A stretch of 64,000 nucleotides of DNA from positions 64,001-128,000 of IMG/VR virus record IMGVR_UViG_3300047510_001668; one strand, 5' to 3'. Within the stretch, counting starts at the first letter, position 1, and each line of letters opens with the position of its first letter. Source of the DNA: a virus. Below, piece after piece: positions 11,890 to 47,870 of the stretch. Made by a program: the position numbers and the translations under genes. The notes under the pieces were generated by a model. It was not told the DNA's origin, did not search any database, and saw only the letters and a program-made list of their open reading frames with translations.

Positions 11890-12374
11890 AATGGCTCATA
11901 AAAAATGTGATTGCCTATTTGTGTGATGGGCTTGGCGAATGTCCAACCAGGCTTCACAGATGTATTATGAAAATACATCGCATTCTTTAGTATAACAACA
12001 TGTGTGTTGTTTGTCAAGACCTCTTTGGCAATTTCATAGGACACTTGATACACGGTGCTGTCGAACGGAGCTTTTGGACCACAGGTCCAGGAGAATTGAC
12101 ATCCTCGGCTGTTCCGTTGATACACCACACCACAAATGGTTTTCGGGAACTGTTTATGTCGGACACGATTCATGGTCACTGTGGCAACTGCCAACTTGCC
12201 ACGGTAGGATTCCATGGGTGCCTCATAGAAAATGTTCTTGGCTAAGCATGTCAATTGCTTCTCATCCAGAACAACTTTTGAAATGGGTTTACGTTCCATC
12301 ACAGGAACTGGATGATAATCTCCCACCAACAACGCCAGCAACATCAACACAATCAAAAATGCATTTCTGAACAT
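11886..12374 (-). CDS. cell wall hydrolase (SleB/Hydrolase_2 family) with N-terminal signal
   Basis: CLAKNIFYEA..E..G..AVA.V.MNRV, FPKTICGVVYQ, QFSW, IGNHIFY. Confidence 0.9.
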   Translation of the reverse strand: MFRNAFLIVLMLLALLVGDYHPVPVMERKPISKVVLDEKQLTCLAKNIFYEAPMESYRGKLAVATVTMNRVRHKQFPKTICGVVYQRNSRGCQFSWTCGPKAPFDSTVYQVSYEIAKEVLTNNTHVVILKNAMYFHNTSVKPGWTFAKPITQIGNHIFYEPL

Positions 12375-12404
12375 AGAACCTCCCATGTGAAATGTACATA
12401 ACAA

Positions 12405-12660
12405 GGTGGGGGTTTTCTGTTCCCAGGGAACCCCCGAACCCGGCATGCTACTTAATTAAGCAGCTAATGCAAGAGGCGTATTATATGTGCCTGTTAATGT
12501 TTTTGCTCTGCTTACGGCAGTCGCCTATCGGGTAGCTCTCTCATCTAGTCCTTAACCTGTCGAAACCAGTCATCCCCGAAATGTTTGCTACTGAATGGAG
12601 ATGGAGGGAATCGAACCCTCGTCCAAGCTATGTTTCAATTTGAGCTGTTCTACTACCATC
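12405..12660 (-). ncRNA. ssrA: tmRNA, permuted two-piece gene
   Basis: T-arm/acceptor GGACGAGGGTTCGATTCCCTCCATCTCCA (ends 12596) lies upstream of GGGGATGACTGGTTTCGAC (starts 12577); G3-U70; tag GTYNTPLALAA* at 12491-12456; outer ends approximate. Confidence 0.9.
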
Positions 12661-12668
12661 CTACAGAA

Positions 12669-13397
12669 CTATTTATGAAACTCTTTGACAGTGATTTTGT
12701 TATCAGCATCAATTAATATAGCTGTCAGATTTTCCACCCAATCACCAGAATTTAAATAGTGAACACCTGCAATTTGTCTATCTTCTGGTTTGTGGATGTG
12801 ACCACAGATAACACCAGAGCAATTGTTTTGTCGTGCGAGATTTGCGGCACCTACTTCAAAGTCTGTGATGTAGTTGACTGCTGCTTTCACCCCATTCTTA
12901 ATATCTTTAGAAATGGAATAGTAAGGAAGTCCTCTCCATGCTCTCCACTTATTATACCAGGTATTCAATCGAAGTGCCAATTCATATCCACTTGCTCCAA
13001 TTTGTGCAATCCACTTCCATTTAGCAACAAATACGTCCAAGATGTCTCCGTGGAAGATGAAATACTTTTTGCCTTCACCGAGGTCAAGGATGTAATTTTC
13101 TTCCACTTGTAACTTGCCGAGATGCATATGCATGAATTCGTGTAAGAACTCATCGTGATTCCCACGTATCCACACCACAGGTATCTTTCTGGAAATGTCT
13201 AATACTTTAGATATCACCTTGGTATGCTTTGCTCTCCAACGAACGCCACGGGACAATGCCCATCCATCCACGAAGTCACCGTTGATAATCAAGATGTCGG
13301 TGTGATGTTCTTCCAGAAACTTCAAGAACTCCACTGCTTTGCAATCTTCTGTTCCTAAATGGACATCTGATACGATAATGGCTTTGTAGTGCTTCAT
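12669..13397 (-). CDS. LpxH-like (UDP-2,3-diacylglucosamine hydrolase family) metallophosphoesterase
   Basis: SDVHLG, NGDFVD, GNHD, FHGD, GHIH, NSGDW. Confidence 0.88.
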   Translation of the reverse strand: MKHYKAIIVSDVHLGTEDCKAVEFLKFLEEHHTDILIINGDFVDGWALSRGVRWRAKHTKVISKVLDISRKIPVVWIRGNHDEFLHEFMHMHLGKLQVEENYILDLGEGKKYFIFHGDILDVFVAKWKWIAQIGASGYELALRLNTWYNKWRAWRGLPYYSISKDIKNGVKAAVNYITDFEVGAANLARQNNCSGVICGHIHKPEDRQIAGVHYLNSGDWVENLTAILIDADNKITVKEFHK

Positions 13398-44939: not shown

Positions 44940-45011
44940 TGCCCCGACTAGGACTCGAACCTAGAACCTGGTGATTAAGAGTCACATGCTCTACCATTGA
45001 GCTATCGAGGC
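44940..45011 (-). tRNA. tRNA-Lys(CTT)
   Basis: Cloverleaf; first 10 nt overlap HNH gene end. Confidence 0.88.
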
Positions 45012-45391
45012 GTTCTATAAGTTCTAGCAGATTTTCTTTTTCCTGTATTCTTAAAAGTTTTCTTTAGTGAGTGACAATTAGGACAGAGAACTCTTAAATT
45101 TTCACGTAAATTATTATAAGCATCACCATCAATATGGTCAACATCTAATGGTACAGTATTTGTATATGGATTTACATCACCCCAACCACATTCTGAACAT
45201 TGATGTTTTGCTTCTTCTAATAAAAATCTACGCATCCAGACAGGAACAGAAATACCACCTTTTCTTATAAAGTTTTTACCTTCTAACCATGTAGATATTG
45301 AACTCTTGTATTGAAATGCTTGTTGACATTTACCATCACAAAAAGTATTTCTACCTGGTATCTCTTTACTACAGTTTTTACAAGTTTTCAT
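45002..45391 (-). mobile_element. free-standing HNH homing endonuclease gene 1
   Basis: CSECG..LDVDHIDGDAYNNLRENLRVLCPNCH; AT-rich; own late promoter 45409-45416. Confidence 0.88.
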
Positions 45392-46416: not shown

Positions 46417-46423
46417 AATAACA

Positions 46424-46557
46424 ACCTCAGGCGTCCCTGAGGTGAACACTTGTAGTCCTGCGGCAAAGTACAATAGAAGCTGTCTAGAAGATTTCTATTC
46501 ACATATAGCCTAGCGGAACCTTTCGGTAATAACTATATTTCATATACCTACAAGTAT
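46424..46557 (-). ncRNA. candidate structured RNA A
   Basis: Nested stems, GAAA tetraloop, terminal 8 bp hairpin. Confidence 0.5.
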
Positions 46558-46561
46558 TCTA

Positions 46562-46644: not shown

Positions 46645-46703
46645 AGGTGTGATGCCAGTTAACATTATGGATTCTCGCAGACCACTGGCACCACAAGCGA
46701 GAA

Positions 46704-46776
46704 TGGGTAGTGAGGGACTCGAACCCCCGACAGCCTGCGTGTAAAGCAGGTGCTCTACCAGCTGAGCTAACCACCC
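46704..46776 (-). tRNA. tRNA-Val(TAC)
   Basis: Cloverleaf; first 10 nt overlap HNH gene end. Confidence 0.92.
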
Positions 46777-47168
46777 CTTTTATATCTACCTAAGTATCCG
46801 TTTCTTTTAGTATTTTTTGTGTTTCTTGAAACCCAGGTATCTGTTTGTGTGTGACAATTAGGACACAACAATCTTAAATTTTCTATTTTATTGTTATCTG
46901 AATTACCATCAATGTGGTCTAATTGCAGTGTCAATTCTTTCCCATTATGAAATGGCATCTGACCACATATTACACAAACATCACCTAAAGTTTCTTTCAG
47001 ATACTTTTTTAAAGCACCCACATTAGAACAAACCCCTTCTAATATTTTTGGAATTGAAATAGTTTTGTATTTAAATTCTCCTTGGCACTTATTACTGCAA
47101 TACTTGCCTGTTTTTTGTGATGGGAAAAAGTGTATCTCCTTTTCACAATTTAAACATTTACCTACCAT
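46767..47168 (-). mobile_element. free-standing HNH homing endonuclease gene 2
   Basis: CVICG..LQLDHIDGNSDNNKIENLRLLCPNCH; AT-rich; TATAAATA at 47197-47204 in hairpin loop. Confidence 0.88.
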
Positions 47169-47219
47169 CTTTTCTCCTTGTTAGACCTTACAATTTATTT
47201 ATACGGTCTAAGTTTTTCA

Positions 47220-47292
47220 TGGACCTGAACGGGATCGAACCGATGACCTCCTGAATGCAAATCAGGCGCTCTCCCAGCTGAGCTACAGGCCC
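47220..47292 (-). tRNA. tRNA-Ala(TGC)
   Basis: Cloverleaf, G3-U70. Confidence 0.93.
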
Positions 47293-47297
47293 GAGGT

Positions 47298-47388
47298 GAC
47301 GTTGAAGTGGGCGGACTCACCCGCTTTCCTAGTTGAGATAGGCGACCGATTTGCTCAACATTGTCGGCCCTCTAACCACTTGAACGTC
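47298..47388 (-). ncRNA. candidate structured RNA B (4-way junction, kissing loops)
   Basis: 13 bp closing stem, three internal hairpins, GTTGAG/CTCAAC loop complementarity. Confidence 0.6.
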
Positions 47389-47395
47389 TAACTTG

Positions 47396-47578
47396 TTACT
47401 TGGCAGCTTCACCTTCTACTGCTGGCTTTACTTCTGCTGACTTGATTGAATCAGTATCAATCTTGGTTGAGTCAACAACTGCTGCACTGTCAACTGCAAC
47501 TTCACCTTGAACTGCTTCTTCCTTTGCTGCACATGCACCAAGGAACAACACACCGACCAACATGAATAACTTGCTCAT
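47396..47578 (-). CDS. small lipoprotein
   Basis: LGAC lipobox; AAGGAG RBS. Confidence 0.8.
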   Translation of the reverse strand: MSKLFMLVGVLFLGACAAKEEAVQGEVAVDSAAVVDSTKIDTDSIKSAEVKPAVEGEAAK

Positions 47579-47807: not shown

Positions 47808-47870
47808 AATATAACACCCTGGGACTCGTTTGTCAAGCCCCAGGGTAAGTCCTTCCAAATCAACAACTTA
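47808..47870 (-). promoter_or_regulatory. tRNA-operon promoter plus 25-bp palindrome (copy 3)
   Basis: TTGACA-17-TATATT within CCCTGGG/CCCAGGG hairpin; TAAGT-CC-TTC-CAAAT-CAA-CA-ACTTA at 47846-47870. Confidence 0.78.

Follow-up and report, generated by a model that had tools for sequence, protein, structure and literature searches.

What is the 91-nt structured sequence that lies directly in front of a tRNA-Ala gene in the tRNA cluster of an uncultured T4-like phage, and what might it do there? The sequence (the element) occupies positions 47298-47388 on the minus strand of the window, i.e. of the whole 64,000-nt stretch of DNA that we analysed, which is part of a virus record of 177,878 bp that is 99% complete. 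According to ARAGORN and Rfam, the phage has 29 tRNA genes covering all 20 amino acids, plus a permuted tmRNA. The tRNA cluster is surrounded by genes for a T4-type RNase H and for HNH homing endonucleases, and the nearest cultured phages, all below 50% identity in RNase H, are Stenotrophomonas phage DLP6, Methylophilales phage Melnitz and cyanophages.

The cluster has some further features of its own. Two HNH genes (46767-47168 and 45002-45391, both minus strand; Pfam HNH/HNH_3, PHROG HNH endonuclease) lie between tRNA genes; in many relatives tRNA-Val directly follows tRNA-Ala, in place of the HNH insertion. The 59-nt spacer after tRNA-Val (46645-46703, minus strand) can form a 12-bp hairpin with a 24-nt loop (z = -2.1). 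The permuted, two-piece tmRNA (12365-12726, minus strand) scores 112.7 bits with the Rfam model tmRNA_permuted and 97.7 bits with beta_tmRNA, encodes the tag GTYNTPLALAA, and may hint at a host that uses a two-piece tmRNA, probably a proteobacterium living in freshwater.

We analysed the architecture of the element. The sequence-only reading had listed an imperfect closing stem, three hairpins, an AAA linker and two complementary loops, all placed 5 nt before tRNA-Ala. Each of these was found base for base on the minus strand, with tRNA-Ala(UGC) starting at 47292 (Table 1). One of the 13 positions of the closing stem is a C.C mismatch, and GUUGAG in the loop of hairpin 1 is complementary to CUCAAC in the loop of hairpin 2 over 6 nt. 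The linkers of the junction are tRNA-like in length: hairpin 3 adjoins the closing stem directly (0 nt), a single nucleotide joins hairpins 1 and 2, and three nucleotides precede hairpin 3. The four-way junction is also the fold predicted by RNAfold, at -31 kcal/mol. The folding z-score, however, is only -2.4, with 4 of 200 shuffled sequences folding equally well; this modest value makes folding energy alone weak evidence, and the strong evidence for the structure is comparative.

Table 1. Features of the element and its transcript (positions in the window), and the members of the four lineages
Feature	Position	Strand	Remarks
Putative sigma70-like promoter, TTGACA-17-TATATT with TG	47808-47836	minus	upstream of tRNA-Glu; consensus match only
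Closing stem, 5' strand GACGUUCAAGUGG	47388-47376	minus	pairs with 3' strand CCACUUCAACGUC
Junction strand J1/2, UUAGAG	47370-47375	minus	6 nt in the window
Hairpin 1, GGCCGA/UCGGUC	47344-47369	minus	6 bp, 14-nt loop CAAUGUUGAGCAAA
Loop-loop strand a, GUUGAG	47354-47359	minus	within the loop of hairpin 1
Single G		minus	joins hairpins 1 and 2
Hairpin 2, CCUA-UCUCAAC-UAGG	47328-47342	minus	4-bp stem, 7-nt loop
Loop-loop strand b, CUCAAC	47332-47337	minus	within the loop of hairpin 2
Junction strand J2/3, AAA	47325-47327	minus	invariant
Hairpin 3, GCGGG-UGAG-UCCGC	47311-47324	minus	no linker to the closing stem
Closing stem, 3' strand CCACUUCAACGUC	47310-47298	minus	
Spacer ACCUC	47293-47297	minus	5 nt, element to tRNA-Ala
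tRNA-Ala(UGC)	47220-47292	minus	always the next gene downstream of the element
Lineage A			window, L037, L039-41, L088, L028/L097
Lineage B			L056-58
Lineage C			L044-46, L096
Lineage D			L059-62

An exact 16-mer scan, together with a search with the neighbouring RNase H, found the element in 15 IMG/VR contigs, and a degenerate pattern found ~16 further metagenome contigs of the same clade. Altogether, ~30 viral and metagenome contigs carry homologues, and all of them belong to one clade of freshwater T4-like phages. The family sample thus comprises only four deep lineages, A to D, in which the element RNA is 91-117 nt long. Its position is always directly 5' of tRNA-Ala, at a distance of 3-6 nt in all lineages, and in all of them the spacer mostly ends in UAC. 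The tRNA-Ala gene is 100% identical in all element-positive lineages with the exception of L096, which has a 63%-identical allele. The tRNA cluster is a mosaic, with L096 pairing the element with a divergent tRNA-Ala allele, and the alleles of element-negative relatives are 63-79% identical. Beyond the clade, degenerate scans of IMG/VR, JGI metagenomes and 185,579 prokaryotic genomes yielded only chance matches without the structure; L092, L094, L103, L106, L108 and the Nostoc MAG contig L110 matched the pattern and were rejected since the structure is absent. The cultured-phage collection holds no close relative (best RNase H identity 48%; no hit in Melnitz). In its own genome the element is single-copy, with no paralogue found.

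In some close relatives (L047-L055 and L077) the Glu-Gln-(ORF)-Ala order is the same and the element is missing, indicating that it is dispensable, i.e. accessory. At the element's site L047 has a plain GC-rich UUCG hairpin, and in L052 and L053 the ORF and tRNA-Ala have no structure in between. On the RNase H tree, one change can separate presence of the element from its absence. The ORF in question encodes 60 amino acids (47396-47578, minus strand) with a lipoprotein signal (…LFLGAC…) and lies between tRNA-Gln and the element; it may be a lipoprotein of the superinfection-exclusion type, and relatives have equivalents of it whether or not they carry the element. In most lineages the element lies 5-50 nt past the stop codon of this ORF. 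In L039-L041, however, the ORF has been deleted and the element kept; the two are independent modules. A variant of the element (L102:1891-1941 and L105:7940-7990, both minus strand) has the core and tRNA-Ala intact and has lost closing-stem complementarity: on the 3' side of the stem, a GCGCGUGC-type sequence with no upstream complement has taken the place of 12 nt.

Collecting homologues and looking for covariation was one of the checks proposed with the sequence-only reading, and covariation was indeed found, for the helices as well as for the loop-loop pairing. In the core alignment 96.9% of cells pair, as compared with 20-37% after shifting the partners by 1-3 columns, and none of 500 shuffles reached the observed covariation score. 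Hairpin 1 has compensatory changes in 4 of its 6 pairs (GGCCGA/UCGGUC, GUGUGA/UCACAC, UUCAA/UUGAA). The loop-loop helix changes from GUUGAG/CUCAAC in lineage A to GAUGAG/CUCAUC in lineages B-D; one of its six pairs (14-39) changes on both sides, being AU in four rows and UA in two, and this covariation represents a single evolutionary event. The stem of hairpin 2 is invariant across lineages, and covariation speaks neither for nor against it; its loop has 7 nt in lineage A and 6 nt in lineages B-D. Hairpin 3 has a conserved base (GCGG/CCGC), with variable length (5-8 bp) and a variable loop (4-7 nt).

The closing stem is the most changeable helix in sequence, and its pairing is kept. Lineages A-D have four unrelated sequences here, 12-18 bp long, each of them self-complementary, and all 12 of the 12 inner positions show two to four pair types (in a pair table registered by script from MFE folds; MAFFT misaligned these columns). 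Cognate flanks pair with -17 to -28 kcal/mol, most non-cognate combinations with -7 to -16 kcal/mol. Counted from the junction, the stem is irregular at pair 7-9 in each lineage, with C.C, U.U or a bulged U, G.U, A.A, or a bulged A. There are also G.U pairs in every lineage, which on the opposite strand would be A.C mismatches; they fit only a minus-strand transcript, and the structure is thus one of RNA from the transcribed strand. A DNA inverted repeat or MITE was rejected on the same grounds, and because the element is single-copy.

Conservation of the unpaired nucleotides follows a different pattern. The core (YAAUGNUGAGCAAAU, G, GCCUA(U)CUCANCUAGG, AAA, GCGG) is almost invariant, as is the 14-nt loop of hairpin 1, while the DNA of the RNase H gene has diverged to ~80% identity. 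The joining strand J1/2 is A/U-rich and variable among relatives (6-18 nt), with a constant GG end. The contrast is sharpest between lineages B and D, where RNase H proteins are identical and the core is nearly identical, and the closing stems and joining strands are completely different. This indicates selection on the core itself, the periphery being selected only for pairing. As a control we used another spacer of the cluster, between tRNA-Leu(CAA) and tRNA-Ser(UGA) (46417-46560, minus strand), which folds strongly (z = -3.5) into a multibranch structure closed by a 15-bp stem, and has a 3' hairpin. No homologue of this spacer was found in any related locus, so conservation is specific to the element and not general to spacers of the cluster. 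We are highly confident that the element is a genuine functional structured RNA.

The suggestion that the RNA is new was borne out by Rfam 15, whose 4227 models include hammerhead, twister, twister-sister, pistol, hatchet, hairpin and HDV-like ribozymes, all riboswitches, pRNA, YrlA and tmRNA. No model matched the element at the gathering score, none matched it at E ≤ 10 in a 500-nt region, and none matched it at E ≤ 5 in four loci representing lineages A-D. Detectable membership of the tRNA, tmRNA, small self-cleaving ribozyme, riboswitch, pRNA and YrlA families is thus excluded. As had also been noted from the letters, neither a T-loop nor the hammerhead CUGANGA core is present, and the element is called neither by ARAGORN nor by the tRNA and ribozyme models of Rfam.

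The element nevertheless shares several features with tRNA: a four-way junction, a last hairpin that, like a T-arm, directly adjoins the terminal stem at its 3' strand, a single nucleotide between arms 2 and 3, and a location in a tRNA array. In contrast to a tRNA, its terminal stem has 12-18 bp instead of the 7 bp of the acceptor, and it lacks a T-loop of the GTTCRANYC type, the G18/G19 motif of the D-loop and a constant 7-nt anticodon loop. A tRNA or tRNA-Sec-like identity was rejected, as ARAGORN made no call, RF00005 gave no hit at E ≤ 10, and the size of the hairpin 2 loop is not constant.

Several other identities were considered and rejected. The core of a hammerhead, in which CUGANGA and GAAA strands surround a three-way junction, is absent; the UGAUGAG of lineages B-D lies in the covarying helix and reads UGUUGAG in lineage A, and there was no Rfam hit. 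The HDV fold is a nested double pseudoknot with the helix order P1-P2-P3-P3'-P1'-P4-P4'-P2'. In the element the order is C-H1(Ka)-H1'-H2(Kb)-H2'-H3-H3'-C', the location is the 5' leader of tRNA-Ala, and Rfam gave no hit, which speaks against an HDV-like or theta ribozyme. Some YrlA RNAs are phage-encoded, and the element shares with them a long terminal stem with an irregularity and a tRNA-like multi-helix module; it differs from them in having no T-arm. A Y RNA/Ro system was rejected, as the TROVE domain of Ro (PF05731) is absent from this 178-kb, 99%-complete genome, where the controls were positive, and the YrlA model hit only true tRNAs and never the element. For a T-box-like interaction with the tRNA, the complementarity between GCAAA in the hairpin 1 loop and UUUGC in the anticodon loop of tRNA-Ala amounts to only 5 nt and falls partly within the loop-loop helix, and there is no conserved UGGN with which the 3' end of the tRNA could pair. 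A small ORF starting at a GUG in hairpin 3 (47195-47320) continues across the tRNA-Ala gene, and its start would lie in a variable hairpin. We also considered, as a target in trans, a 16-nt sequence (ACAATGGTGAGCAAAT) that nearly repeats the hairpin 1 loop and lies ~4.4 kb upstream of RNase H on the opposite strand. It occurs only in lineages B and D, near-copies being located at L056:1541-1556, L059:1553-1568 and L081:643-658 (all minus strand). Its absence from the window means that it is probably not a conserved target.

How is the element expressed? A sigma70-like promoter upstream of tRNA-Glu (Table 1) is the probable start of its transcript, as judged from the match to the consensus, and no terminator-like sites were found between this promoter and the element. 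The element is thus most likely part of an early tRNA precursor with the order Glu, Gln, 60-aa lipoprotein ORF, element, Ala, consistent with its earlier placing inside the tRNA transcript. The promoter region (47808-47847, minus strand) lies within a GC-rich hairpin of 14 bp, which was also scored as terminator-like by the scanner; this hairpin may be the terminator of the upstream DUF6433 gene, overlapping the tRNA promoter. Cleavage by RNase P is an established step in the processing of tRNA precursors. For an element in the tRNA transcript, the RNase P cut at tRNA-Ala +1 would set its 3' end, which in every lineage is predicted to fall 3-6 nt beyond the closing stem.

The closest analogues of the element are the stable RNAs C and D of T4 (species 1 and 2 RNA), which are encoded in the tRNA cluster, are processed from a tRNA precursor and have no assigned role (PMC3014915). 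Like the element, T4 rnaC has a closing stem and three hairpins. It keeps, however, a true T-arm (GGUUCGAAUCC), which the element does not have, and no loop-loop complementarity of the kind seen in the element has been reported for rnaC or rnaD. Topology and context are thus common to the two, without detectable homology: a search of T4 positions 69500-73500 with our model R1, with filters off, gave no hit better than E = 3 and none on rnaC or rnaD, and homology to these RNAs was rejected. By analogy, the element may be read as a new member of the same kind of phage RNA; it belongs to a previously undescribed family of small structured RNAs, new and non-homologous to RNAs C and D.

We tentatively favour the explanation that the element is a stable small RNA, made from an early tRNA precursor, which receives its 3' end from RNase P and whose invariant core binds a factor in trans. 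Its transcript, starting at an early, host-type promoter, would also contain tRNA-Glu, tRNA-Gln and tRNA-Ala. RNase P, acting as it does on tRNA precursors in general, would free the 3' side, and host endonucleases with subsequent trimming in the A/U-rich upstream flank would free the 5' side. In the folded RNA, the closing stem is expected to stack end-to-end on hairpin 3, with hairpins 1 and 2 lying side by side and locked by the 6-bp loop-loop helix. This lock may produce a compact, nuclease-resistant RNA that persists in the cell, as T4 RNA C and RNA D do. The functional surface would then be the unpaired core (YAAUGNUGAGCAAAU ... GCCUA(U)CUCANCUAGGAAAGCGG), with the closing stem and hairpin 3 serving as a replaceable scaffold. 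Most likely, the core would bind a host or phage factor, the RNA acting as a sequestering or decoy RNA. A role in host takeover or counter-defence would fit the invariant core, the replaceable scaffold, the presumed early expression and the accessory distribution.

Covariation, conservation of the core, a promoter with no terminator behind it and the precedent of T4 RNAs C and D all count for this explanation. Counting against it are the element-negative relatives, the loss of the stem in L102 and L105, the constant 3-6 nt gap to tRNA-Ala, the modest z-score, the origin of the loop-loop covariation in a single event, and hairpin 2, on which covariation is silent.

The constant gap is one argument for a rather unlikely alternative, in which the element acts in cis on the precursor that contains it. 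After the RNase P cut it might form the 3' end of the fragment upstream, with the lipoprotein mRNA and tRNA-Gln, and shield it from 3' exonucleases; or it might control how efficiently, or in what order, the 5' end of tRNA-Ala is matured, or provide an entry site for RNase III or RNase E at the imperfect closing stem. Such a role would be consistent with a location that is the same even in front of the different tRNA-Ala allele of L096, with the usual short distance from the stop codon of the lipoprotein ORF, with the plain hairpin that takes the element's site in element-negative L047, and with the closing-stem irregularity that every lineage has kept. However, a stabiliser or a cleavage site could do without an invariant 14-nt loop and without a covarying loop-loop helix. 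In addition, the element has been kept where the ORF was deleted (L039-L041), and L052 and L053 do with nothing structured between ORF and tRNA-Ala.

It is also rather improbable that a new functional RNA class (ribozyme or aptamer) has its active centre in the invariant core locked by the pseudoknot, or that the loops build a pRNA-like, RNA-only oligomer. The first of these, taken by itself as a new small ribozyme or an aptamer whose active site or binding pocket is formed by the kissing hairpins and the junction, we consider unlikely. Invariant unpaired nucleotides combined with covarying stems and a pseudoknot are the typical signature of such RNAs. Phages do place ribozymes beside tRNAs: theta ribozymes, which are HDV-like and come from gut phages, are small structured RNAs directly beside phage tRNA genes (PMC10879173). 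They sit, however, in 3' trailers of tRNAs and have a nested double-pseudoknot fold, in contrast to the element, which lies in a 5' leader and has another helix order. Moreover, the helix ends, where a processing ribozyme must cut, are not conserved in sequence, and in the closing stem, which is variable, no candidate for a conserved cleavage site was seen.

As an aptamer, the element resembles those for purines and lysine, which have a closing P1, a multi-helix junction, adjacent hairpins with loop-loop pairing and conserved nucleotides in junction and loops. Unlike these, it has no match in Rfam, lacks an expression platform and is not followed by a metabolic gene. Indeed, we found no terminator-like or RBS-occluding structure, and tRNA-Ala begins after 5 nt, so that the next base pairs are those of the tRNA itself. 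The narrow phyletic range would be unusual for a riboswitch, and the lack of any Rfam ribozyme or riboswitch match in the four lineages (E ≤ 5-10) weighs against both forms of the proposal.

The second possibility, pairing of the complementary loops between molecules to give dimers or rings, appears distinctly unlikely. Covariation is blind to the difference between intra- and intermolecular pairing, and the link of one nucleotide between hairpins 1 and 2 would strain an intramolecular kiss; on the other hand, the 4-nt linkers on either side of GUUGAG, by our estimate, make such a kiss sterically plausible. The kissing loops of ROOL and GOLLD were first read as tertiary contacts and proved to be intermolecular (PMC12286853). 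In design the element recalls the pRNA of phi29 (RF00044), with its long imperfect 5'/3' helix, multi-helix junction and two complementary, covarying loops. The pRNA, however, which forms a ring on the phage portal, has a three-way junction and a 4-bp intermolecular loop pairing, as compared with the four-way junction and 6 bp of the element; phage type and context differ as well, no link of the element to packaging was seen, and the Rfam pRNA model does not match it. Furthermore, T4-like packaging motors need no RNA.

The weakest proposal, that of a decayed tRNA gene or neutral relic with a cloverleaf-like fold, could account for the tRNA-like size, the location in a tRNA cluster and the tRNA-like junction linkers, but is highly improbable and already largely refuted by covariation, as three helices are maintained by compensatory changes, the core has stayed almost invariant against ~80% identity in RNase H DNA, and no similarity to tRNA models was seen at E ≤ 10.

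To our knowledge, the stable non-tRNA RNAs of the T4 tRNA cluster have no known role after fifty years. The present analysis adds an unrelated small RNA, which is kept at the corresponding site by a distant, uncultured branch of T4-like phages. The signature of this RNA is clearer than usual, with invariant loops, covarying stems and a pseudoknot backed by covariation, and at 91-117 nt the RNA can feasibly be transcribed in vitro, making it a tractable model in which to ask whether such RNAs are counter-defence decoys, sponges for host factors, processing devices or assembly units. Many orphan RNA motifs of narrow distribution are known, and as it stands the element is a well-supported one of these. 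If its core were catalytic, ligand-binding or self-assembling, it would represent a new class of RNA.
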